Origin: Gemmatimonadota bacterium
Lineage (GTDB): Bacteria > Gemmatimonadota > Gemmatimonadetes > Palauibacterales > KS3-K002
DNA: 57,833 nucleotides
Assembly (NCBI GenBank): GCA_039586795.1
Contig: JBDHJS010000020.1
Span: 1 to 57,833 of the forward strand
Direction: 5' to 3'
In this document: positions 21,956 to 40,957 of the stretch, in pieces
How the letters are laid out: every line of letters starts with the position of its first letter
Numbering within the stretch: the first letter of the stretch is position 1
Translations under genes and position numbers: made by a program
The notes under the pieces: model-generated
Databases searched by the model: none
Seen by the model: only the letters and a program-made list of their open reading frames with translations
What the model was told of the DNA's origin: nothing

Positions 21956-22369
21956 TTGATTTCTAAAACTGCCGAGTACGGCCTCCGGGCCGTCATCTAC
22001 ATAGCCGGACGAGAAGACGACCAACCGGTGCGGGCGAACGAAATCGCCCACGATCTGGATGTGCCCGCTAACTATCTGTCTAAGATTCTCCATAGCATGG
22101 CCCGGGCCGGCATTTTGACATCCGGGCGGGGTCCTCGGGGGGGCTTTCGGTTGGCGAAACCGCCGGAGGAGATGAATCTGGCCGAGGTCGTCGGGCCGCT
22201 CGACCCGGCGCTGTTGGATGAGACTTGTCTGCTGGGTAATCCGTCCTGCTCGGATCACAATTCCTGCGCCGTCCATGAGCGCTGGAAACGGGTGAAGGAG
22301 CCGCTCCTGGCCTTCTTCGCCAGGACGACGGTCGCGGACGTGCTGGGCGGGGGTGCCGTCGTACCTTAG
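21956..22369 (+). CDS. Rrf2-family transcriptional regulator, probably Fe-S binding
   Basis: SKTAEYGLRA, YLSKIL, S.RG..GGF.L and C-x6-C-x5-C-x2-H. Confidence 0.92.
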   Translation: MISKTAEYGLRAVIYIAGREDDQPVRANEIAHDLDVPANYLSKILHSMARAGILTSGRGPRGGFRLAKPPEEMNLAEVVGPLDPALLDETCLLGNPSCSDHNSCAVHERWKRVKEPLLAFFARTTVADVLGGGAVVP

Positions 22370-22561
22370 CGCTCTCAGTGGCGAAGGAACGCGGTGAGGG
22401 GACACCCGGCGATGCACCAACGCGCGGCGCTGCCGAGCTTGAGCTGTAGGCTGAGCTCTACTACCTAAATCACACAACGATAATAACTTAGCGCAACGGA
22501 CAGCTTTCGCGTACTGCTGGGGCGGTCAAATCGCGACAGAAATCACTAATAATTCCCATTA

Positions 22562-22589
22562 TTGACACGGCTCGGGATTCTAATATGAT
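22562..22589 (+). promoter_or_regulatory. Putative sigma70 promoter for the cba operon
   Basis: TTGACA-16 bp-TATGAT in an AT-rich region about 65 bp upstream of cbaD. Confidence 0.55.
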
Positions 22590-22654
22590 GCCGCGGTCTA
22601 ATTCACACCCGTAGGGGAGAAATTCCTAACCACTTCAAGCATCCGGAGGGACGC

Positions 22655-22819
22655 GTGAGCGAGGAGCATCTCCATTCGTCGTCCGAAGGCTCGCCGGACG
22701 TCGGGGGGCACCCGAAGGGGACCCTGGCGATCGTGGGAGTCTACGGCCTGCTATTCGTGGTCGGTTGGTTGATCCTGTACTTCGCGGTATTTGTACCGCG
22801 CGGCGCACTGACTCCGTGA
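22655..22819 (+). CDS. cbaD: ba3-type cytochrome c oxidase subunit IIa (54 aa; below the ORF-track cutoff)
   Basis: Manual translation ...HPKGTLAIVGVYGLLFVVGWLILYFAVFVPRG..., the PKG-TM-RG pattern of Thermus subunit IIa; GGAGG RBS. Confidence 0.85.
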   Translation: MSEEHLHSSSEGSPDVGGHPKGTLAIVGVYGLLFVVGWLILYFAVFVPRGALTP

Positions 22820-22826
22820 GGTAGCC

Positions 22827-23321
22827 GTGCACATCGATTTCTATGAGAGGATCTGGATGTGGGCTGCGGCGGGGATCGTCGTGATCTTCCTGGCGTCCAT
22901 GGGCTTCACGTTCTTCGGGCGAGCGATTCAGCCGCCGAGTCATGTGGAGATGATCGATCCGACGACGGTACGATCCGACGAGGAGTTCGGCAGCCCCGGA
23001 GTAACGATCAACGCCGACGGCAGCGCGACGGTTGTGGTTCAGGCGTTCATGTTCGCGTTTCTGCCGAATGAGATTCGCGTGCCGCGTGGCCGACCGGTGA
23101 CGTTCCGGATGACCAGCGCCGATGTGATCCACGGATTCCAGATCGTGGGCACGAACGGCAACACGATGGTGGTGCCGGGCTACGTCAGTCAGTTCACGAC
23201 TGAGTTCAGCCGGGCGGGTGAGTACCTGATCGTCTGCAACGAGTATTGCGGACTGGGTCATCACGTGATGTCGGCGAAGCTGATCGTGGAGGACGGAGCC
23301 GGGATGGGAGGTGCGAGATGA
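22827..23321 (+). CDS. cbaB: ba3-type (B-family) cytochrome c oxidase subunit II
   Basis: Single TM helix; CuA ligands DVIHG and CNEYCGLGHHVM. Confidence 0.95.
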   Translation: MHIDFYERIWMWAAAGIVVIFLASMGFTFFGRAIQPPSHVEMIDPTTVRSDEEFGSPGVTINADGSATVVVQAFMFAFLPNEIRVPRGRPVTFRMTSADVIHGFQIVGTNGNTMVVPGYVSQFTTEFSRAGEYLIVCNEYCGLGHHVMSAKLIVEDGAGMGGAR

Positions 23322-24940
23322 TCGAATCGAGAAAGCTTGCACTGGCGAATCTCTGGGTCGCGATCTCGGCCTTCGGCATCGCGGCGGCGATGGCGATGAT
23401 GCAGGCGCTTTCGCGTGCCGATCTCGACCTGCCGTGGCGAACGGCGAAGATGTACTACCTGTCGGTGACGGCGCACGGTGTACTGATGGCGCTGGTCTTC
23501 ACGACATTCTTCATCATGGGGTTCGGCTACGTCGTCGCGGAGAAGACGCTGGGCCGGCCGATCACGATGAAGAAGTTCGCCTGGGGTTCGTTCTGGGTCG
23601 CGCTGATCGGGACAGCCTTTACGGCCTGGGCGATCCTGTGGGGTAAAGCGACAGTCCTCTACACGTTCTATCCGCCGCTCAAGGCGCACCCGCTGTTCTA
23701 CATCGGTGCTGCGCTGCTGGTGGTCGGCTCGTGGGGCTGGTGTTGGGTTCTCATCCATACCTACCTGACCTGGAAGCGTGAGAACCCGGGTGTTCGCACG
23801 CCGCTGGCGATGCATGGCTACATGACGACGATCATCGTCTGGATTTTGGCGACGATCGGTGTTGCGATTGAGGTTGTGGTGCTGCTGATCCCGTGGTCGC
23901 TGGGGATCACGGAGAAGATCGACCCGGTACTGGCGCGCATCCTCTTCTGGTGGTTCGGCCACCCGCTGGTCTATTTCTGGCTGCTGCCAGCCTACGTGAT
24001 CTGGTACACGATGGCGCCGAAGATCGCTGGCGGTAAGCTGTTCAGCGATCCGCTGGCGCGCCTGGTGTTCGTGCTGTTCATCGTGCTGTCGACGCCGGTC
24101 GGTTTCCACCACCAGTTCCTCGATCCGGGGGTGCGAGCGGGCTGGAAGCTCTTCCACTCGTTCAACACGCAGTGGATTCTGTTCCCGAGCTTCGTGACGG
24201 CGTTCACGGTGATCGCCTCATTCGAGATCGCCGGGCGAATGAAGGGGAAGAAGGGGTGGTTCGACTGGCTCGAGTCACTACCGTGGGGCAATCCCGCGTT
24301 CTCGAGCGTCGCGCTGTCGATGTTGATCTTCGCGATCGGTGGCTGGGGCGGCGCAATCAACGCGGCCTACGGCATGAACGCCATGGTGCACAACACGGCG
24401 TGGATCCAGGGCCACTTCCACCTGACGGTGGGGACGGCGGTGGCGCTCAGCTTCATGGGCATATCGTACTATTTGATGCCCAGGTTGCTGGGTCGCGAGC
24501 TGGAGCTATCGCTGCTGGCCCGAATTCAGCCTTACATCTGGTTCGTGGGAATGCTGCTCTTCTCCGTCGCCAACCACCTGACGGGTCTGGCGGGCATGCC
24601 TCGTAGGATCTACACGTTCGAGTACGGCGGCAGCGAGGCGGCGCAGGCTTGGATAGCCGGGACGGGGATCTCGGCGTTGGGCGGCGTGTTCCTGTTCATC
24701 AGCGCCGCCTGCTATGTGGCGGTGATGTTTGGCACGGGGCTGGCCGGAAAGAAGGAGTCGGCGGAGCCGATCGAGTTTGCGGAGGCGATGGAAGGACCCA
24801 ACGACAAGGCGCCGATTCTAGATAATCTCAAACTCTGGACCGCCATAGCGGTGGTACTGATCGTGCTGGCGTATGCGTGGCCGATTGCGGAGCATTTGAT
24901 GACGCCGCGCTTTGGCTCACCGGGGTTTAGTCCGTTCTAA
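23318..24940 (+). CDS. cbaA: ba3-type (B-family) heme-copper oxidase subunit I
   Basis: TAHG, LYTFYPPL, WWFGHPLVYFW, GFHH, HNTAWIQGHFH and GMPRR; ATG at 23318 overlaps the cbaB stop. Confidence 0.95.
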   Translation: MIESRKLALANLWVAISAFGIAAAMAMMQALSRADLDLPWRTAKMYYLSVTAHGVLMALVFTTFFIMGFGYVVAEKTLGRPITMKKFAWGSFWVALIGTAFTAWAILWGKATVLYTFYPPLKAHPLFYIGAALLVVGSWGWCWVLIHTYLTWKRENPGVRTPLAMHGYMTTIIVWILATIGVAIEVVVLLIPWSLGITEKIDPVLARILFWWFGHPLVYFWLLPAYVIWYTMAPKIAGGKLFSDPLARLVFVLFIVLSTPVGFHHQFLDPGVRAGWKLFHSFNTQWILFPSFVTAFTVIASFEIAGRMKGKKGWFDWLESLPWGNPAFSSVALSMLIFAIGGWGGAINAAYGMNAMVHNTAWIQGHFHLTVGTAVALSFMGISYYLMPRLLGRELELSLLARIQPYIWFVGMLLFSVANHLTGLAGMPRRIYTFEYGGSEAAQAWIAGTGISALGGVFLFISAACYVAVMFGTGLAGKKESAEPIEFAEAMEGPNDKAPILDNLKLWTAIAVVLIVLAYAWPIAEHLMTPRFGSPGFSPF

Positions 24941-24967
24941 ATGCTGGTTTGGTGGTTCCTAATAGGA

Positions 24968-24996
24968 AAAGAGCCCCGGCTTTGCCGGGGCTCTTT
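24968..24996. terminator. Intrinsic terminator, likely bidirectional
   Basis: AAAGAGCCCCGGC-TTT-GCCGGGGCTCTTT perfect hairpin after cbaA. Confidence 0.85.
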
Positions 24997-25003
24997 ACAT
25001 CTG

Positions 25004-25167
25004 GACAGCCGACAGCCGACAGCCGCGTACCAACGCCCACACCCTGTTCGGCGACCGACTCTCGACGTACGACGCACGCGTTCGACGTACGACGAGAATA
25101 GGAAGTCGGGAGTGGATCGCCGAGTAGGATTTGGTCGCCGGTACGCGGCTGTCGGCTGTTGGCTGTC
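25004..25167. repeat. 164-bp element bounded by 28-bp inverted repeats built from GACAGCC heptamers (MITE/REP-like)
   Basis: 25004-25031 matches the reverse complement of 25140-25167 at 27/28 positions. Confidence 0.8.
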
Positions 25168-25232
25168 GAAATAGAAACGTCCGATGAGCGACGGCCGTCG
25201 GCTGTCGACCGCCGAAAGAAGTACCCAACCCG

Positions 25233-25979
25233 TCAGCCAGCCACAGTGCTCCCCGGCCAGATCAACACAGGCCGGTCCGACTCCTCAACCAGCGGCTTCA
25301 CAACCGGCACACCCGTCGAGTCGGCGGCCTTCTCGGATGGATCATCGGCAAGGATCGTCACCAGGGTAGCCCTGCAGTCATGCGCTTGCTGCAAGAGCGT
25401 GGTGGCGATGTCGTCATCGGATTGCACTGTCTCCAACTTGACGCCATCGCACTCCGGATAGCTGTTGGTCTGAGCCTCACCGACGATTCGAATCGCCCGC
25501 AGTTGGCCGGAACCAAACCACTCTACCAGCTGCGGCACCGTACGCTCGAACGTCGCCGCGCCTTTCACCGCGACCAATACGCGACTTCCCAGAGAGCCCT
25601 CCACCGGGCTCTCCGGCAGGAAGAGGATCGGGATCCCCAGACTCCGCAGCGGGGACGACACGCGCTCCAGATCCCAGTCCTCCTCGTGTGTGGCGCTCGA
25701 GATCACGACGATGTCTACGTCGCGCACCCGGGCTAGCTCGAACAGCCACTTCACCGCGTCACCGCGCTTGAGGGCCAGCTCGACCTTCGGGATGGCCGCC
25801 TCGAAGTGGCGCACCCAGTTGGCCAACTCCGGCATCGGTTCGGCGGGCCCCGGGTCCGCCGGCAGAAGATGCAGGACCGTCGCTTCCGTGAGCCCAATGC
25901 CACGCAGTTCCGGCAGCACCCGGAGAAACTGCTCTCCGGCCTCCGGACTGGTCAGCACGAATATGGCTCGCTTGATCAC
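25233..25979 (-). CDS. Degenerate tandem universal-stress-protein-like protein (start uncertain; ORF extends to 26033)
   Basis: TVLHL, GD...L.ELA....VDIVVI, PILFLP, RVLVAV and PLVEESDRPVLIWP USP-type motifs. Confidence 0.65.
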   Translation of the reverse strand: MIKRAIFVLTSPEAGEQFLRVLPELRGIGLTEATVLHLLPADPGPAEPMPELANWVRHFEAAIPKVELALKRGDAVKWLFELARVRDVDIVVISSATHEEDWDLERVSSPLRSLGIPILFLPESPVEGSLGSRVLVAVKGAATFERTVPQLVEWFGSGQLRAIRIVGEAQTNSYPECDGVKLETVQSDDDIATTLLQQAHDCRATLVTILADDPSEKAADSTGVPVVKPLVEESDRPVLIWPGSTVAG

Positions 25980-26144
25980 CTGACGGTCATCCACTCCTGG
26001 CGGTTCAAAGCACCCATGCAGAGCGATCTGCATTTCACCTTGCCCACCTCTATGGATGAATCATGCCGCGTGATGCGTGAACTGTAAGGTATTTGCATAC
26101 AATGATTTACGGCATCCACCGTGGCTCGACCTCGCAGTTTCTGA

Positions 26145-26220: not shown

Positions 26221-27981
26221 TCAGCTTTGGACGGCGGTGCCGGCGGGTAGCGAGAGAACGAAGCAAGCGCCGGGCTCTTCGTCCCTCAGGTAGGCCAGTT
26301 CGCCACCGAGCAAGCGGGCGAGCTCGCGGGAGATAGCGAGTCCCAGACCGGCACCGCTCTTTGACGAGCGATTCGTACCTGCTCGGTGAGCCTTGAAGAC
26401 ATCTTCGCCGAGGGCGGAATCGATTCCCGGGCCGGTATCGCGGACCGTCACCTGCCAGCCCCGTTCGCTTGGCGCCAGGTCGAGGTCGATGCGGCCGTTT
26501 GACTTGGTGAACTTCACGGCGTTGGAGAGAAGGTTGAGGATGATCTGGCGAACCCGTGTGGCGTCGCTAAAGGCGATGGCCCGGTGGTCGAGGCCGGAGA
26601 CGTGAAGCTCGATGCCGTGTCGCTCCACAGTCGGCTTCATGCTGGCCCCCACTTCGCGGACCAGGGCGCGGAGGTCAACTTGCTGAAAGTCGAGCTGAAG
26701 CTGCCGCGCTTCGATGCGGCTCAAGTCGAGCAGGTCGACGACGAGGCGGTGCAATTGCTGGGCGCCTTCGTAGGCGTAGCCGATTCCCTGGTCGATGCGG
26801 TCCTCGACGCCGTCGGCGGCGAGTGCGCGGAGGCGCTCGGTCCAGCCGACGACGCCCGCGGCGGCGTTCTTGATTTCGTGGTTGACGATGGCAAGGAACT
26901 GACCGCGTTGTGCCGCGAGGTTTGCGTTCTCGATGGCGACGGCGGCCTGTGCCGCCAGCAGCTCGGCGAGTTCTTCGTCTTCGGTACTAAACTCGGTGCT
27001 ACCGATCTTTTCCGTAAGATACAGGTTGCCGAATACCTGGTTGCCGATGCGAATCGGCAGGCCGAGCAGCGAGTGCATCGGCGGGTGTCCCTCGGGGAAA
27101 CCGGCGTACTCTGGATGCTTCTGGAGATCGGCGATCCGAATGTTCACCGCTTCCCGGAGCATGATGCCCAACGTACCGCCTCCGGTCGGCCAGCGCCCGA
27201 TACGAGACACGGTCGCCTTATCCATGCCGGAGTGGAGGAACCGTGCCAGCTTGGATCCGGAGCTATCAACAACGGCAAGAGCGGCGTAGCGCGCCCGGAT
27301 GACGGCGCGGGCAGAATCGAGGAGCGTTTGGAGAACCTCGTCGAGGGAGAGCGTGCTGCTCAACACCATGCCGGCGCGGATCAACGCCTGCAGTCGGTGC
27401 ATGTTCTCGTCCTGCGCCGTACGCAGAGCGGTCAACTCGGCGAGTCGCTGCTCTTCGCGCTCGAACCGGTGCGCGTTGTGTAGGGCGATGGCCGCCTGGG
27501 CGGCCAGCGCTTCCAGGATCTCGGCGTCGGCGTCGTCGAAGTCGCGCTCACCGCGGGGGTTGAACGCGAAAATGGTTCCCAGCGCCGTGTCCCCGTAGTA
27601 GAGCGGCGATATGACCTCTTTGCGCACGCCTAGCTTCTTCGCCATGGCATGGTCGGCGCGGGGCTCCGCACCGACGTTGTTGATGAATAGGGTCTTGCGG
27701 CTGGTGATCGCGACACCGTTAAGGCTGCCTTCGATCGACAAGCACTCGCCGAGCCCCAGGGCCGCGTCGGGGCTGGTGGCGACGACTTTGAGGCAGGGGC
27801 CGCAGCCGTCGCAGGGATCAAGCTTCTCGGTGACTACAGCGGACTCGGCATCGAGTAATCGAACGGCGTGATGGCAGATTTGGGCGAGGATATCCTGGTG
27901 CGCCAGGGAAGCGCTGATGGCACGGCCGACGTCGACCAGGGCGCGCAGTCTTTGTTCGCGGGAACGGCTATTCTCTGTCAT
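26221..27981 (-). CDS. Tandem-GAF sensor histidine kinase; second GAF is DosS/DevS-like
   Basis: GFPEGHPPMHSLLGLPI...FGNLYLT; H-box NHEIKN; NLLSNAVKF, DTGPGI and GAGLGL; ATG at 27981 overlaps the regulator stop. Confidence 0.9.
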   Translation of the reverse strand: MTENSRSREQRLRALVDVGRAISASLAHQDILAQICHHAVRLLDAESAVVTEKLDPCDGCGPCLKVVATSPDAALGLGECLSIEGSLNGVAITSRKTLFINNVGAEPRADHAMAKKLGVRKEVISPLYYGDTALGTIFAFNPRGERDFDDADAEILEALAAQAAIALHNAHRFEREEQRLAELTALRTAQDENMHRLQALIRAGMVLSSTLSLDEVLQTLLDSARAVIRARYAALAVVDSSGSKLARFLHSGMDKATVSRIGRWPTGGGTLGIMLREAVNIRIADLQKHPEYAGFPEGHPPMHSLLGLPIRIGNQVFGNLYLTEKIGSTEFSTEDEELAELLAAQAAVAIENANLAAQRGQFLAIVNHEIKNAAAGVVGWTERLRALAADGVEDRIDQGIGYAYEGAQQLHRLVVDLLDLSRIEARQLQLDFQQVDLRALVREVGASMKPTVERHGIELHVSGLDHRAIAFSDATRVRQIILNLLSNAVKFTKSNGRIDLDLAPSERGWQVTVRDTGPGIDSALGEDVFKAHRAGTNRSSKSGAGLGLAISRELARLLGGELAYLRDEEPGACFVLSLPAGTAVQS

Positions 27982-29384
27982 TCCGGTGTGCGGGCGCCCT
28001 CGCTCTCGTAGCGCTTGAGCTTGCGATAGAGAGTTCGGCGATCGATGCCGAGGATATCCGCTGCCTCCGTCTTCTTCCAGCGGACGCTCTCCAGGACGCG
28101 GAAGATATACTCGCGCTCGAGATCTTCGAACGTCCAGCGTTTGCGTTGCGCTTCGTCCAGGATGTCCTGACCGTCTTCTTCCTGCTCGGCGTCGGCGGGT
28201 AACTCGAAGCCGATCGTGCCGGCGCCGCCGCTGGCGTGGAGAACGACCGCGCGCTCGATGAAGTTCTCCAGCTCGCGGACGTTGCCCGGCCAATTATAGC
28301 CCATCATGCGATCCAGCGTGCGGCCGGGTAGCTTGGGCGGTTCGACCTCGTAGAGCTCGGAGTACTTGCTGATGAAGAAGTTCGAGAGCAGCGGGATGTC
28401 CTCTCTTCGCTCTTTGAGTGACGGGACCTCGATCGGGAAGACGTTGAGGCGATAGAACAGGTCCTCACGGTACTCACCCTCGGCGACCCGCTTCTTGAGG
28501 TCGAGGTTCGTCGCCGCGATCAGGCGGATATTGACGGGGATCGGCTGCCGGCCGCCGACGCGCATGATCACGTATTCCTGTAACACGCGGAGCAGCTTCG
28601 GCTGCAGCGACATCGACATGGTGCTGATCTCGTCCAGGAACACCGTGCCGCCCTGCGCCTCCTCGAACAGTCCCTTCTTGTTCTGGATCGCGCCTGTGAA
28701 GGCGCCTTTCATATGCCCGAACAGCTCGGACTCCAGGAGATTGTCGGGGATCGCCACAACATTGATCGGCATGAACGGTTTGGCGGCGCGGTCGGAGGCG
28801 GCGTGTACCGCTCTGGCGACGAGTTCTTTGCCGGTACCGGTGTCGCCGGTGATGAGAACCGTCGCACGGCTGGGCGCCACTCGGGCGATCAGGTCGATGA
28901 CTCGCTGGATCGCCGGGCTCTTGCCGACGATCTGGATGTCGCCGCCTACACCGCGCGCCCGCTGGCGCAGCAACGCCAGCTCGCGCCTCAGGTTCTTTTC
29001 CTCCAGCGCGCGCTGAATGGTCAGGACCAACTCGTCGGTGCTGAACGGCTTGTTGATGTAGTCGAACGCGCCCTGTTTCATCGCCTCAACGGCGGTATCG
29101 ACGGTCCCGAAGGCGGTCATCATCACGACCTGGGTGTCGGGCTGGCGTGTCGGCACCAGGCGGAGCACGTCCATCCCGTCCATGCCCGGTAGATTGATGT
29201 CGAGCAGGATCACGTCGTAGACATCCTGCTCCATCGCCCGGAGGCCGTCTTCACCCGTTTCCGCCGACTCGACCTCGTGGCCAAGGTCGCTGAGCACATC
29301 TATCAGCAATTGGCGGAGGACCTCGTCGTCCTCGACAACGAGAACCTTCGCTTCGGTTTCTACGGCAACAGCTTCGTCATGCAT
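27978..29384 (-). CDS. Sigma54-dependent response regulator (NtrC/AtoC family)
   Basis: Receiver domain (VEDD, LDINLP, KPF), GDTGTGKE, ESELFGH, GAFTGA, WPGNVREL and a Fis-type HTH. Confidence 0.95.
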   Translation of the reverse strand: MHDEAVAVETEAKVLVVEDDEVLRQLLIDVLSDLGHEVESAETGEDGLRAMEQDVYDVILLDINLPGMDGMDVLRLVPTRQPDTQVVMMTAFGTVDTAVEAMKQGAFDYINKPFSTDELVLTIQRALEEKNLRRELALLRQRARGVGGDIQIVGKSPAIQRVIDLIARVAPSRATVLITGDTGTGKELVARAVHAASDRAAKPFMPINVVAIPDNLLESELFGHMKGAFTGAIQNKKGLFEEAQGGTVFLDEISTMSMSLQPKLLRVLQEYVIMRVGGRQPIPVNIRLIAATNLDLKKRVAEGEYREDLFYRLNVFPIEVPSLKERREDIPLLSNFFISKYSELYEVEPPKLPGRTLDRMMGYNWPGNVRELENFIERAVVLHASGGAGTIGFELPADAEQEEDGQDILDEAQRKRWTFEDLEREYIFRVLESVRWKKTEAADILGIDRRTLYRKLKRYESEGARTPE

Positions 29385-30816
29385 CAGAATCCACCGGTAG
29401 AATTACGGTAAACGTCGCGCCTTTCCCCAGCGAGGATCGCGCTTCGATCGCGCCGCCGTGCGCATGAATGATCTGCTTAGCCAGCGCCAGCCCAAGGCCA
29501 GATCCGCCCGAACGGGAGAAGAACGGCGCGAAGATATAGTGCAGGTCCGCCGGCTCGATCCCCGGTCCATCGTCGCTCACTTCAACCTTGATCACCTGCC
29601 GCATCGGCCGGCCTACGATGGGGAAGCCGCGCGTTAGTTCGGTGCCGATTGTGACGATCCCGCCGCCCTTTGGCTCCATCGCCCGCTGGGCGTTCATCAG
29701 GAGATTCAGGAACACCTGCTGCAGCTGACCGGCGTCCGCTTGGATCAGCGGTAGCGTCGTGCCCGAGTTGATTTCGACCTCCGGCTCCACGCTGGCCCGA
29801 TCGAACGACGGGCCGAGTAGCTCCAACACACGGTCGATCACATCGGTGATCTGCACCGGTTCGAGGTCCAGCTCTCCCGGCTTGGCTAGCTCGACCAGAC
29901 CGTGGGTCAACCGGGCGATACGGCTCAGCTGCTCGGCCGCCGTGGTCAGTTGCCGCTCTGCGTCTTCGTCGCCCAGACCCGCTCGTCGAAGGTTCTCGAC
30001 CACGATGCCGATCGACGTCAGCGGCGCGCCGATCTCCTGCGCCACGCTGGCGGCTAGTTGACCCAGCGTGACCAGCTTCTCGGACTCGATCACCTGGCGC
30101 TCCACCTGCCGTCGCTGCGACAGGTCGCGCACGATCGTCAGGCTGGCCAGTCCGGCGCCATTGCGTTGGCCGTTCCGCGGCACGGTCCGTGTCAAGCTCA
30201 CCTCTACCTCACGCCCGTCCTTCGTCACGCGACGCGTCTGGTAGTCGCGAACGGCGCCCAACTCGCGTAGCGCCTTGCGCAACCGCTCGGGCTCACGCTC
30301 GGCGATCAGATCCGCAGGGATCAGCTTGGTCAGCGGCTCACCGACCATCTCGTCGGATGTGTAGCCGAACATCTCTTCCGCACCGCGGTTCCAGGCGATG
30401 ATCCGCTCGTCATCATCAAGAGCCCAGATCGCGTCCGCCGAGTCCGCCAAGAGCTCGGGCCACCCGGACTGATGCGCCGACGACGGGACACAGTAGACCG
30501 CGGTCATGTCATCTGATCCGCGGGTGACCCGCACGTCCCAGTAGCCGTGACCGATTCGCACCGAGGCCAACGACGCCGGCGTCGCTTCCCGGGGCGGCGT
30601 TGGTGTCAGCAACGCCAGCAGTCCCTCGTCGAGGTCACCGCCCAGCGCGTCGCCCACACCCCGACCGCACACGTCGGCCACCGTCGTATCGAACGCCGCC
30701 TCACAAGCCGCGTTCAGGTACACGACCTTCCCATGCCCGTTAACGATAAATATCGGATCGGGCAGGCCATCCAGAATCGACATTACCCCCTGCGACAACA
30801 CGCTCCTCCAGGTCAT
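29377..30816 (-). CDS. PAS-PAS histidine kinase-like protein lacking the phospho-acceptor His
   Basis: Two PAS domains; H-box reads LAASVAQEIGAPL; intact N, G1, F and G2 boxes. Confidence 0.88.
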   Translation of the reverse strand: MTWRSVLSQGVMSILDGLPDPIFIVNGHGKVVYLNAACEAAFDTTVADVCGRGVGDALGGDLDEGLLALLTPTPPREATPASLASVRIGHGYWDVRVTRGSDDMTAVYCVPSSAHQSGWPELLADSADAIWALDDDERIIAWNRGAEEMFGYTSDEMVGEPLTKLIPADLIAEREPERLRKALRELGAVRDYQTRRVTKDGREVEVSLTRTVPRNGQRNGAGLASLTIVRDLSQRRQVERQVIESEKLVTLGQLAASVAQEIGAPLTSIGIVVENLRRAGLGDEDAERQLTTAAEQLSRIARLTHGLVELAKPGELDLEPVQITDVIDRVLELLGPSFDRASVEPEVEINSGTTLPLIQADAGQLQQVFLNLLMNAQRAMEPKGGGIVTIGTELTRGFPIVGRPMRQVIKVEVSDDGPGIEPADLHYIFAPFFSRSGGSGLGLALAKQIIHAHGGAIEARSSLGKGATFTVILPVDSDA

Positions 30817-30976
30817 ACACGGTTTCCAACCTTCTCCCTAATGAACGTTCCGTGCCGCCCGTCGCGAGATCGGCCCAGAACAAGTAAAATGTTGCCATAT
30901 AATCACTTACGACACCTGCATCAAGCCGATCTGGGGCCAGGTCCGAAGAGTGGAGCGCGCCGGGGGGACGCCGATT

Positions 30977-30996
30977 GGGACACATTGTCCCGATTA
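30977..30996. promoter_or_regulatory. Palindromic enhancer-like site GGGACA-N3-TGTCCC-GATTA
   Basis: Perfect 6-3-6 palindrome about 220 bp upstream of a sigma54 promoter; related half-sites at about 31060 and 31095. Confidence 0.6.
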
Positions 30997-31167
30997 CCAT
31001 GCCGGGTTCCCGTTCGAGATGCAAGTCGGCGCGTTTCGCGGGCCGATGGATGGGGCCAGTTGGGACGATCCGGATAGAACAGGCATCGCCCGCTTGTCCC
31101 GCTGTGTGTCACGCTGTCACGGGGAAGAACGGCGATTTTGAAGGGCTGACTGAGCTAAGATGTTACA

Positions 31168-31180
31168 AATCAAGGCGTTG
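31168..31180 (+). promoter_or_regulatory. IHF binding site
   Basis: AATCAAGGCGTTG is an exact WATCAANNNNTTR match, immediately upstream of the -24/-12 element. Confidence 0.65.
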
Positions 31181-31198
31181 AGAACGGCGGCCTTTCGC

Positions 31199-31214
31199 TG
31201 GTACAAGTTGTGCA
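31199..31214 (+). promoter_or_regulatory. Sigma54 (-24/-12) promoter
   Basis: TGGTACAAGTTGTGCA has GG-N10-GC spacing and lies divergent from a sigma54 activator operon. Confidence 0.7.
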
Positions 31215-31224
31215 ACTATAGAAA

Positions 31225-31372
31225 GCAACCACGCCGTATGGCGCATCTAAAAACACGGTGCCACAGCGCTTGCGGATGTGGGGATTTGTGAGCCCGGGTA
31301 GCCTGTCGGAAAAAGATGGTTGGGGCTAATCGCACGAGGACTGACAGGTTCACCCGGGCTTACTACATCCTG
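31225..31372 (+). ncRNA. Candidate sigma54-dependent small RNA
   Basis: Downstream of the sigma54 promoter with no convincing CDS; long interrupted hairpin 31274-31370 (GGATGTG/TACATCC, GTGAGCCCGGGT/ACCCGGGCTTAC, CCTGTC/GACAGG). Confidence 0.5.
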
Positions 31373-31373
31373 T

Positions 31374-31497
31374 AGATTCGGTGATTACGAGATTCTGGGG
31401 TTAGGGGATTCCGGGATTGGCTGGACGACCCAGAGTCCGGGGTGACACTCCCACACCGAATCTCTAAACCCCCGCACCGCCGAATCCCCTAATCCTC
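31374..31497. repeat. Degenerate 8-mer repeats forming interleaved inverted repeats
   Basis: AGATTCGGTG (31374) pairs with CACCGAATCT (31454); TTAGGGGATTC (31402) pairs with GAATCCCCTAA (31482). Confidence 0.65.
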
Positions 31498-31510: not shown

Positions 31511-32431
31511 TTAGAGAAGCGTCTTCCCAGAAGCCTTAACCGTAAAGACAGGACAAGTCGCGCGGCGAACCACCTGCTCGGTAACGCTCCCCAGCAGCAT
31601 GTGCCCGAGGCCGGTGAGGCCGTGGCTGGCGATGACGATGAGGTCGGCGTCGATTTCGGAGGTGAAGTCGGCGATTTCCGGGGCGGCGCGGCCGGCGCGG
31701 ACGTGGATCTCGGTGCGGGCGGCGTCGGTATCCGTCTCCGTCAGCAGCTTGCTGAGCCGTTCGATGGATTGTCCCCGCAGCTCGTCGGTGACCGAGCCGC
31801 CGGAAGGCATGACGGGCGGGTAGAAGTCGGGGTAGACTACCTCGTCCACGATGTGGATGAGATGGAGCTGTGCCTCGAAGAGGGCGGAGAGCTCTTTGGC
31901 GTAGTTGAGGGCGAGCCGGGCGTGCTCCGAGAAATCTACGGGCACGACGATCTGGCTGATGCAAACGTCGGGATCGGCCTTTTTTTTCTCCGGCACGGTC
32001 ATCACGGGGCAGGGTGCCAGGCGTACGATCTCCTCGGCCACGCTGCCCAGCAGAAGTCGCCTCAGTCCCCGTCGGCCGTGGGTCCCCATCACTATAAGGT
32101 CGATGTTGTTCTCGGCGGCATAGTCGAGTATCCCGGCGGCCGCCGAGATCCCACGGCTCTGAGCCCGCTTGACGGTGAATCCGGTGCCCGCTTCGCCGTC
32201 GGTCGCTGCCAACATCTGAGTCTCGGCATGCACCTCCAGGGCGCCGTAGAGCTCCTCCATGTTGGGAAGACGGTGGGCCGCGTTACCGGGGTCGGCCTCG
32301 TGGATGACCAGGCTGTGAAAGAGGTGTAGCTCCGCGTTGAAACGCCTTGCCAGCTCCCGGGTGCAGGGCATCGCATGACTCGCGCACCTGGAAAAGTCGG
32401 TGGGATAGAGGATCCGTTTGATGTCCAGCAT
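31511..32431 (-). CDS. Tandem-domain universal stress protein
   Basis: ILYPTDFS, DLIVMGTHGRRG..LLGSVAE..VR.APCPV, then PVDFS and ASHG..LLGSVTE; ATG at 32431 after AAGGAG. Confidence 0.95.
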   Translation of the reverse strand: MLDIKRILYPTDFSRCASHAMPCTRELARRFNAELHLFHSLVIHEADPGNAAHRLPNMEELYGALEVHAETQMLAATDGEAGTGFTVKRAQSRGISAAAGILDYAAENNIDLIVMGTHGRRGLRRLLLGSVAEEIVRLAPCPVMTVPEKKKADPDVCISQIVVPVDFSEHARLALNYAKELSALFEAQLHLIHIVDEVVYPDFYPPVMPSGGSVTDELRGQSIERLSKLLTETDTDAARTEIHVRAGRAAPEIADFTSEIDADLIVIASHGLTGLGHMLLGSVTEQVVRRATCPVFTVKASGKTLL

Positions 32432-32596: not shown

Positions 32597-33982
32597 ATGC
32601 GACGGGTACTGATCATCGCGACGGCCATGCTCAGCCTCGCGTCGTCGTCTGCCTACGCGCAGAAGGACTGTGGCGGAGGTTTCAATGTCGCCATCGACTG
32701 CAACGGGATCGGGTTCGGCAATTCCAGCCGCTTCACCGGTCTGCGGTTCAACTGGAGCGACCGGGATCTCGATACGATCAACGGGTTGAACTTCACGCTC
32801 TGGCGACCGCGAGATTGGCCGGATCGGGACTGGATGGGTTCGCCCGGGGGCACGATCAACGGACTTGCCTTTGGCCTGTTCCCGGCGGCGGATCACATCT
32901 ACGGTGCGTCGATCGGGATCGGCGCCACCGTGGTGGGGCGAAGCGCGGCGGGCCTGACGTTTGGGTTGCTCGCGACCGTCTCGGAGGGATCGCTGTCCGG
33001 TATCAACGTGGGCGGTCTGGCGATGGTTTCTCAGGGTTCGGCGTCGGGTCTCAACGTGGGCGGCCTGGCCGTTGTCTCGGAGGGTTCGCTCAGCGGGATC
33101 AACGTCGGTGGCCTCGCCTCGGTCTCCCAGGGTAGCCAGAGCGGGATCAACCTCAGCCTTCTGGCGTTGGTTGCCGAGGGCTCGCTGACGGGGATCAATC
33201 TGGGCGGTCTGGCGAACGTGTCGGAGGGGAGTCAGACCGGGCTCAACCTGGGTGGCCTGGCTCTCGTGAGCGAGGGTCCGCTAACCGGCATCAACCTCGG
33301 CGGGCTGGCCACGGTCTCGGAAGGCAGCCAGACGGGGATCAACATGAGCTTGCTGGCGCTGGTGTCGAGCGGGGCGCTCACCGGAGCGAACGTCGGCGGT
33401 CTGGCCGTGGTGGCCGATCGGTCGATGAACGGCATCAACGGGGCGTTGCTGGCCGGTGTTTCGGGCGGTTCGATGACCGGGATCAGCGCCGGCGGTTTGG
33501 CGCTGGTGGCCGACGGGGCGATGACCGGCCTCGGGGTCGGTGGTCTGGCGACCGTGGCGAACGGCCGCTTCGAGGGTATCGGCGTGGGCGGCCTGGCTCT
33601 GGTTGCCGATCGCTCCATAGAGGGCATCACGGTAGGTGGTCTGGCCGTCGTCAGCGGAGGCGGCATCCACGGTAGCGGGATGAGCTTGGGTAAGGTGCAT
33701 GCCGAGGACGAGATCTACGGCTTCGCGGTGGGCGGCTACATGGTGGAGGCGATCGATTTCCGCGGCGCATCGGTCGGCATCATCCGCACGAAGATGGAGG
33801 AGATGCGCGGGTTCGCCGTGTCGGGCTACAACCAGATCACGCTGGAACAACGCGGCCTGACGATCGGCATCTACAACCGGGCCCGGGAGCTGCACGGCGT
33901 GCAGATCGGCCTCTTGAACTACGCCGGTAACAATCCGCCCGGGTTGCGCTGGCTACCGATCATCAATCTCAACCTGAATTGA
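32597..33982 (+). CDS. Secreted Gly-rich 15-residue repeat protein (LA_2272-like surface repeat family)
   Basis: Signal peptide; many repeats of G(I/L)N(L/V)GGLA.VS(E/Q)GS.(T/S); C-terminal GVQIGLLNYA...LPIIN. Confidence 0.8.
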   Translation: MRRVLIIATAMLSLASSSAYAQKDCGGGFNVAIDCNGIGFGNSSRFTGLRFNWSDRDLDTINGLNFTLWRPRDWPDRDWMGSPGGTINGLAFGLFPAADHIYGASIGIGATVVGRSAAGLTFGLLATVSEGSLSGINVGGLAMVSQGSASGLNVGGLAVVSEGSLSGINVGGLASVSQGSQSGINLSLLALVAEGSLTGINLGGLANVSEGSQTGLNLGGLALVSEGPLTGINLGGLATVSEGSQTGINMSLLALVSSGALTGANVGGLAVVADRSMNGINGALLAGVSGGSMTGISAGGLALVADGAMTGLGVGGLATVANGRFEGIGVGGLALVADRSIEGITVGGLAVVSGGGIHGSGMSLGKVHAEDEIYGFAVGGYMVEAIDFRGASVGIIRTKMEEMRGFAVSGYNQITLEQRGLTIGIYNRARELHGVQIGLLNYAGNNPPGLRWLPIINLNLN

Positions 33983-40851: not shown

Positions 40852-40945
40852 CGAGCAGAGGCACGAGTTCTCCCGCTCCTGCTCGTGCTCGACAGCCTTG
40901 ACCGTCGACCGTCCACCGTCTACCGTCCACCGTCAACTATCTACC
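40834..40945. repeat. GAGCAC-based 12-bp inverted repeat followed by an ACCGTCY heptamer array
   Basis: CGAGCACGAGCA (40834) pairs with TGCTCGTGCTCG (40880); accgtcg accgtcc accgtct accgtcc accgtca actatct acc (40901-40945). Confidence 0.8.
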
Positions 40946-40957
40946 GAGGCTAATGCC

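Follow-up and report, generated by a model that had tools for sequence, protein, structure and literature searches.

CrcZ is a sigma54-driven small RNA (sRNA), and GcvB is driven by sigma70 and GcvA and has a linear seed. To our knowledge, Mycobacterium tuberculosis, the host of DrrS (MTS1338), has no Hfq, and DosR is not a sigma54 activator. DrrS is an sRNA output of the DosR-regulated system (PMC5360333). Pxr of Myxococcus is a lineage-restricted sRNA (Cystobacterineae) with a sigma54 promoter beside an NtrC-type activator; it is about 110-140 nt long, with tandem paralogues in some species and a processed short form (PMC5568312; the arrangement is also covered in PMC11928866). GlmY has a sigma54 promoter, IHF and TGTC-type activator sites, and adjacent two-component genes (PMC4152352). 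GcvB uses a G/U-rich seed to pair immediately 5′ of the Shine-Dalgarno sequence (SD), on a C/A-rich enhancer, in many targets (PMC3879156), and it is Hfq-dependent (PMC4474525).

We analyzed a stretch of 57,833 nucleotides (the window; plain coordinates are positions in it) from genome G000 (4.68 Mb, 97.8% complete), which belongs to one family of uncultured Gemmatimonadota, represented here by 31 genomes including G000. Like Pxr, the locus in Table 1 has a sigma54 promoter next to an NtrC-type activator, is lineage-restricted, encodes a predicted RNA of ~140 nt, and has tandem copies. Unlike Pxr, which lies downstream of nla19, the gene is divergent from the operon. Every Pxr paralogue is preceded by a promoter of its own; the tandem copies here are modules of the second hairpin (SL2) that lack one, and nothing in Rfam matched above chance level with E values up to 10. 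Sigma54, IHF, TGTC-type activator sites, and adjoining two-component genes are shared with GlmY, but GlmY is a decoy for the protein RapZ, while the RNA here has the signature of base-pairing and matches no Rfam family. As with DrrS, the predicted RNA would be an output of a Dos-type system in a host where Hfq was not found; in contrast, the kinase here has a HisKA domain and would feed an NtrC-type protein, and there is no sequence or Rfam similarity. The likeness to GcvB is in the predicted G-rich seed beside the SD on C/A-rich sequence and in the many candidate targets. The differences are that no Hfq was found, the promoter is of the sigma54 type, a loop carries the seed, and neither an amino-acid-transporter theme nor an Rfam match is present.

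We predict a two-hairpin RNA made from a sigma54 promoter that pairs at CCCCAACC sites, blocks translation, and is switched by the adjacent heme sensor, and we give this reading a probability of roughly 0.68. The RNA probably acts as GcvB does, repressing by base-pairing, without a chaperone and under O2/redox control. The element appears to be a sigma54-type sRNA gene that has not been described before, and its predicted regulon is unusually clear. Among the matches listed from main texts (no subscription journals), none describes an sRNA family or regulon for Gemmatimonadota, or this RNA; the main text of PMC11316326 has zero occurrences of "sRNA", "small RNA", and "Hfq". From the sequence one can read the RNA together with its promoter, likely signal, and predicted targets. 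The locus offers a test of multi-target pairing in a setting in which searches did not detect Hfq, ProQ, CsrA, or KhpA/B, and it suggests that the oxygen response of a widespread uncultured group has a post-transcriptional arm. If the reading is true, the seed left the strongest leader signature in the genome, and matching leader words to invariant loops could reveal sRNA regulons in uncultured phyla.

Table 1. Features of the predicted sRNA locus and its neighbors (positions in the window; a dot in the strand column is as recorded)
Feature	Position	Strand	Basis or remark
GAF-GAF histidine kinase, DosS/DosT-like heme GAF, intact H-box	26221..27981	-	Pfam, PDB matches, motifs in relatives
NtrC/AtoC-type sigma54 activator (receiver, AAA+, HTH)	27978..29384	-	receiver Asp and GAFTGA intact
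PAS-PAS histidine kinase, Gln replacing H-box His	29377..30816	-	Pfam; residue check in 21 genomes
Upstream activator site 1	30976..30992	.	family consensus roughly TG(G/T)GGCA-N3-TGCCACA
Upstream activator site 2	31095..31121	.	invariant TGTCCC then TGTGTCA-N3-TGTCACG; invariant columns, 23 loci
IHF-like site	31168..31180	.	exact in G000, degenerate in relatives
Sigma54 -24/-12 promoter, TGGTAC-N7-GC	31199..31213	+	conserved in 23/23 loci
Predicted sRNA, ~140 nt	31225..31365	+	start predicted from -12 spacing, end from SL2 base
SL1, variable long stem, conserved loop motif CGGUGCCA (31256-31263)	31229..31281	+	23/23 loci
SL2, ~21-bp stem, 31-nt loop	31288..31363	+	tandem and stand-alone copies elsewhere
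Predicted seed UGGUUGGGGC	31317..31326	+	inside 29-nt invariant stretch 31315-31343
Dispersed heptamer (GATTCGG-type) inverted repeat, outside the RNA	31374..31497	.	51 places on 30 contigs
Tandem universal stress protein gene	31511..32431	-	convergent, syntenic; present in 24/24 distinct loci

The RNA interval is flanked by a divergent three-gene operon and, as the initial annotation had it, by a convergent next gene, which encodes a tandem universal stress protein (Usp); there is no same-direction gene downstream. The operon order is intact in 17/17 fetched loci. The third gene, in all 17, encodes the GAF kinase. Its best PDB matches are the GAF-A domains of DosT and DevS (E 3e-33 to 7e-32), with which its second GAF domain aligns, and it keeps the equivalents of the proximal His149 and distal Tyr171 (numbering counted along the DosT/DevS alignment). 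The GFPxxHP motif is found in 16/16 readable relatives and the H-box His in 15/15. The roles of the GAF-A His and Tyr of DosS, and the inhibition of DosS by O2, have been described (PMC4082495). The kinase appears to have a DosS/DosT-type heme sensor fold; we predict heme binding and O2-controlled autophosphorylation, and it is likely the real sensor kinase of the system. The activator has 82-88% identity across 17/17 relatives.

The adjacent system had been called possibly oxygen-sensing, a view that has support from this third gene and not from the first, the PAS kinase. The latter has Gln at the H-box position in 19/21 genomes and His in two (the two g6 genomes checked), but it retains ATP-binding motifs despite the missing phospho-acceptor His, and it is a probable pseudokinase or phosphatase partner. 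FixL/DosP-like heme binding by this protein was rejected (weak match, His lost). No orthologue above 37% identity was found outside the host family in 120 genomes. The operon teams this conserved candidate pseudokinase (29377-30816) with a DosS-like kinase and a single activator. Just past the sensor operon, the interval 21956-26033 encodes an Rrf2 regulator and contains an operon for a cytochrome oxidase (COX2 and COX1 by Pfam), which we take to be ba3-like, followed by an unannotated 266-aa ORF with a Usp-like look. This setting is in keeping with low oxygen. One Gemmatimonadota order, not necessarily that of G000, consists of facultative aerobes (PMC10469786). We slightly favor oxygen or redox as the inducing signal.

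The initial annotation described a palindromic enhancer, an exact IHF consensus, and a GG-N10-GC element. The palindrome is present (GGGACA-cat-TGTCCC, 30977-30991) and is one of two conserved activator-type sites, of which the other, at 31095-31121, is better conserved. The GG (31200-31201) and GC (31212-31213) are also in place as TGGTAC-N7-GC, and this -24/-12 box is kept in relatives, with TGGTAC and TGC invariant in 23/23 distinct loci, 109-124 nt 5′ of the loop. These are the distinct loci with upstream sequence; one further locus, L014, is truncated. The IHF site is an exact match in G000 but in just 1 of the 23 loci, with 1-2 mismatches in 14 and 3-4 in eight; an AA/CAA/TT core is conserved at this position. 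The genome (4.68 Mb) contains 20 copies of the exact IHF word, only two of which precede a sigma54-like box. G000 encodes RpoN and two IHF/HU-family genes, so that a -24/-12 box, activator sites, RpoN, and a cognate activator are all found, as for a sigma54 sRNA beside its activator. By a pattern of our own making, the only pairs of upstream activator sites and sigma54 box in G000 are this promoter and one weaker candidate; because the pair is near-unique, the predicted RNA is likely the main output of the sensor system. The proposal of an sRNA gene linked to the adjacent system is supported by synteny, the conserved promoter, covariation, and the lack of a match in Rfam.

Bases 31220-31400 fold with -71.3 kcal/mol (z -3.9), and 0/200 shuffles are as good. 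A ~97-nt hairpin had been placed at 31274-31370. A structured non-coding element is indeed present, but with other boundaries, the real structure being SL1 plus SL2; the outer helix 31274-31279/31365-31370 competes with SL1, is specific to G000, and is not conserved. In SL1, 13-20 pairs surround CGGUGCCA in 23/23 loci (median z -2.2, with 13/23 below -2). Across orthologous regions the stems covary and the loop is invariant: 95.9% of cells are paired, and there are 17 two-sided changes vs 4.9 when shuffled (0/500 shuffles as high). The SL2 loop has 29 contiguous invariant bases. Its inner 6-bp hairpin never varies and is therefore uninformative for covariation, and five of the ten seed bases are within this weak hairpin. 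Neither Pxr, GlmY, Qrr, CrcZ, GcvB, nor any other known family was matched by Infernal against Rfam 15: there are 0 matches at the gathering threshold across the window, only chance-level miRNA, snoRNA, and IRES matches at E up to 10, and only chance-level matches at E up to 1 in five related loci. The thought that the region might be a dispersed repeat applies to 31374-31497 alone; the RNA itself is single-copy in G000. On this evidence the conserved non-coding two-hairpin gene is very probably a real sRNA.

SL2 is also found without the promoter or SL1, as three tandem copies in G010 (L039), two in G426 (L030), and two in L247. A separate terminator-like hairpin follows the third copy in G010. 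A stand-alone copy (L236:1170-1250) has a rewritten stem and an identical loop, with no sigma54 promoter and no SL1. It sits at the 3′ end of a radical-SAM gene (TIGR04053), in convergent orientation to the gene for an Ftr1/EfeU-like iron permease, and is possibly a 3′UTR-derived form; the neighboring gene has 63-70% identity to both G000 and another family. Since SL2 recurs without promoter or SL1, we infer that it is an autonomous module and the functional unit.

To examine leaders, we used 3,807 genes from a home-made ORF caller and ranked 8-mers in 3,718 leaders (-45 to -1) against an order-3 Markov expectation. The most over-represented is CCCCAACC (32 seen vs 4.1 expected), the exact complement of the seed GGUUGGGG. 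It is followed in the listed top three by CCCAACCA (22 vs 3.8) and GCCCCAAC (23 vs 4.3), and all three are overlapping complements of loop bases 31317-31326. The position of CCCCAACC peaks at -30 to -20, just 5′ of the SD, with only three occurrences on the antisense strand and three further upstream. Near SD-ATG, independent of gene calls, it is the best of 28 C6A2 permutations (21 vs 6 for the next). Pairing through the loop, as the initial annotation suggested, is strongly supported by this enrichment, and a conserved seed is complementary to many translation-initiation regions. The seed duplex is worth -19.3 kcal/mol vs an opening cost of 4.0. We are confident, on balance, that the RNA pairs with CCCCAACC-type leaders.

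Two other origins of the leader word were rejected. A product of heptamer repeats would explain the next-ranked ACCGTCTA and AATGTTCA but not CCCCAACC, for which 29 sites remain vs 3.5 expected after dropping 23 repeat-like leaders of 3,752. An extension of anti-SD pairing would be on the wrong side of the SD; the assembly has no recognizable 16S 3′ end. Other parts of the RNA were also considered as seeds. A word related to the SL1 loop, GTGGCACC, is enriched in G000 leaders (14 vs 2.8), among them those of GcvP, ornithine carbamoyltransferase, an acyl-CoA dehydrogenase, and a dipeptidase. It ranks only 409th of 1,120 permutations with the strict SD-ATG pattern, however, and when a loose pattern was used the family and the sister family did not differ, so that a second seed in SL1 is not supported. 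For the 3′ half of the SL2 loop the positional profile is flat; neither this half nor the SL1 loop has robust targets.

In 80 genomes of the order, the CCCCAACC-SD-ATG pattern occurs 227 times in 30 family genomes and 79 times in 50 sister-family genomes, and the control CCCACC-SD-ATG occurs 521 and 1,271 times. The ratio of seed to control is 185/400 in 23 carriers (0.46) and 79/1271 in the 50 sister genomes (0.06), contrasts that are non-independent through kinship and may reflect one or two evolutionary events, so that p-values overstate them. Among family genomes in which the RNA was not found, the ratio is 1/32 in G006 plus G013 and 18/35 in G002 plus G022; G001, G003, and G019 have the motif (23/54), but neither the RNA nor the kinase was found there.

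In G000, 52 genes have one of the three top words within 60 nt of the start, and we annotated 47 of these, the gene upstream of PFOR, and 14 SL1 candidates. The candidate targets include pyruvate:ferredoxin oxidoreductase (PFOR), ETF-QO, enoyl-CoA hydratase, GcvH, NadA, ThyX, a Cys/Met PLP enzyme, two isochorismatases, two SRPBCC proteins, a glyoxalase, a CBS protein, a disulphide isomerase family protein, MacB-type permeases, and many unnamed exported proteins. Sites in relatives (60 fetched of 328) add superoxide dismutase, glutamine synthetase, multiheme cytochromes, and NmrA. Of the fetched sites, 21 have a close G000 orthologue and 12 share the site; by distinct gene, 5/13 orthologues share it with G000, over a background of 93/3,807 (2.4%). 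The predicted target set turns over fast and is without a single functional theme.

PFOR is the best conserved predicted target. With loci picked without selecting on the motif, its leader has an exact site in 20/22 family loci, a G-U variant in one, and a misplaced window in one (21 readable family loci), as against 0/8 loci sampled from the 19 sister-family loci with the gene. The site overlaps the last codons of the upstream gene (Pro-Gln-Pro), so protein constraint contributes to this conservation; it retains CCC-CAA where neighboring Gln codons are mostly CAG. The PFOR gene (G000:C79:18397-23448) encodes a 1,683-aa fused protein and is translationally coupled to an upstream Fe-S gene.

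We propose that the NtrC-type activator would receive its phosphate from the DosS-like GAF kinase, that the PAS kinase without the H-box His would act as a modulator, and that the activator would bind two TG-N-CA sites and, aided by IHF, fire the -24/-12 promoter. The GGGC tip of the weak inner hairpin may nucleate on CCCC and zip to 8-13 bp with no known chaperone. The seed GGUUGGGG would pair with CCCCAACC just upstream of the SD in about 30-50 mRNAs, blocking translation. SL2 alone could be the working unit and may be freed by processing; release by RNase III was rejected, as this enzyme (PF00636) was not found in the 97.8%-complete G000.

The duplex would lie a median of 4 nt from the SD, in the 30S footprint and on a C/A-rich enhancer, which makes repression likelier than activation, and we consider it fairly probable that leader pairing represses translation. 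The RNA could instead pair with the same leaders and activate or stabilize the mRNAs, by SD unmasking or by shielding from RNase E/G, which G000 encodes. Blocking the site does lower the SD opening cost in a few leaders (4.2 to 1.0 and 3.7 to 0.2 kcal/mol), but over 23 leaders the median barely shifts (2.6 to 2.3), and at the median gap a duplex should hinder the 30S subunit. If O2 inhibits this kinase as it does DosS, repression of PFOR at low oxygen would be unexpected, and PFOR activation under low oxygen better fits a DosS-like signal. We regard activation as unlikely overall.

A little less probable again is that the RNA is a protein decoy or mimic, either GlmY/CsrB-like or a mimic of the activator site, with CCCCAACC read by an unrelated lineage-specific RNA-binding protein or acting as a general translational enhancer. 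The 29 invariant bases exceed the needs of an 8-10 nt seed, and the tandem loop copies look like sponge arrays. GGA words, as in the CsrB, RsmY/Z, and CrcZ sponges, are present; unlike in those RNAs they are few, the two conserved ones both being at the base of the SL2 loop, and no CsrA was found in 31 family genomes (0/31; controls positive in 3/14), nor Hfq in G000. The CsrA-type sponge put forward by the initial annotation is rejected on these grounds. ProQ and KhpA/B were also not found in the 97.8%-complete G000, the one genome searched for these and for Hfq. Against any decoy, the top leader word would exactly complement the ~138-nt RNA by chance with a probability of about 0.002, and CCCCAACC is scarce where the RNA is missing, while the C/A-rich control word is not. 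Tolerance of G-U also points to RNA-RNA pairing: all 8 G-U-compatible variants are enriched (45 vs 19.3 expected), more so than mismatch variants (68 vs 49.7; p 0.004).

The likeness of the SL1 loop to the activator half-site TGCCACA (window 31250-31265) would also suit a decoy. The left half of this site is not conserved, and its CGG spacer is invariant. The motif could have a second role in autoregulation, as a DNA site downstream of the promoter. Both the SL1 loop and the 3′ half of the SL2 loop are conserved and may bind a protein.

That the element acts mainly at the level of DNA or as a terminator (a bidirectional terminator for the convergent usp gene, plus activator sites) is improbable. 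Many relatives have a U-rich tail after SL2, the copy in L236 is at the 3′ end of a gene, and among the assembled contigs of the one RNA run (X1), one of 259 nt lies over the promoter (30950-31208) but none covers the RNA body. The U-tract in G000 is poor, and no + strand terminator was called there. A terminator would need neither the 29-nt invariant loop, nor the covarying upstream hairpin, nor a dedicated conserved sigma54 promoter, and it leaves the leader enrichment unexplained. The assembled contigs of X3 (kind unknown) cover 31198-31336 and 31307-31370 and, like those of X1, are no evidence of transcription. Least probable of all is a short peptide or a leader/attenuator: an AUG in the loop after the GGAAAAAG run gives a 19-codon frame in G000, but the 29 bases have no synonymous change over nine genera, the length of the A-run varies, the stop is not common, and no same-direction gene is downstream, in agreement with the earlier view that there is no convincing CDS here.

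Within the base-pairing repressor reading, a fuller picture can be offered tentatively. A heme-O2 sensor, a pseudokinase, and a sigma54 activator would have as their main output one RNA that silences dozens of mRNAs without a known RNA chaperone or RNase III, and its self-contained hairpin module, which presents the seed, would have multiplied in tandem and moved into the 3′ end of another gene, like a microRNA hairpin.

The RNA was found in 24/31 host-family genomes (G000 and 23/30 others by pattern), and its core is in 11/12 other family genomes that are at least 90% complete. By BLAST, the hairpin core is in 17/24 family relatives and 0/16 sister-family genomes, a count that omits G002, whose match is to the dispersed repeat only. 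In the GTDB collection, 23 stretches contain a 22-mer without mismatch; 22 of them are titled Gemmatimonadota or Gemmatimonadales and one "uncultured bacterium". A 26-mer with up to 3 mismatches gave one match in 400 genomes of the phylum, itself a member of the host family. The covariance model found 2/2 family genomes and 0/33 sister genomes, with two matches of ~21 bits treated as chance, and added nothing credible among 140 genomes of the class. Viral contigs gave 0 matches to the RNA. Metagenome contigs gave 23 stretches, 20 with the sigma54 box; several of these duplicate GTDB genomes and are not independent.

Among the family genomes in which the RNA was not found, the locus is interrupted by a contig end in G002 and G022. 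Neither the RNA nor the PAS kinase was found in G001, G003, and G019 (71-86% complete), and the RNA, kinase, and activator are all missing from G006 (91% complete). G013 has a diverged kinase and retains the activator and the first upstream activator site, with another gene in the position of the promoter and RNA.

Beyond the Usp gene, the window encodes a 461-aa exported protein of ~15-residue Gly-rich repeats (32597-33982, +) with no Pfam match. The intergenic regions of G000 contain heptamer repeats of unrelated families (GATTCGG-, ACCGTCT-, AATGTTC-, and CCCCAAC/T-types). These form short tandem arrays, often just 5′ of start codons (also at ~40900-40957).
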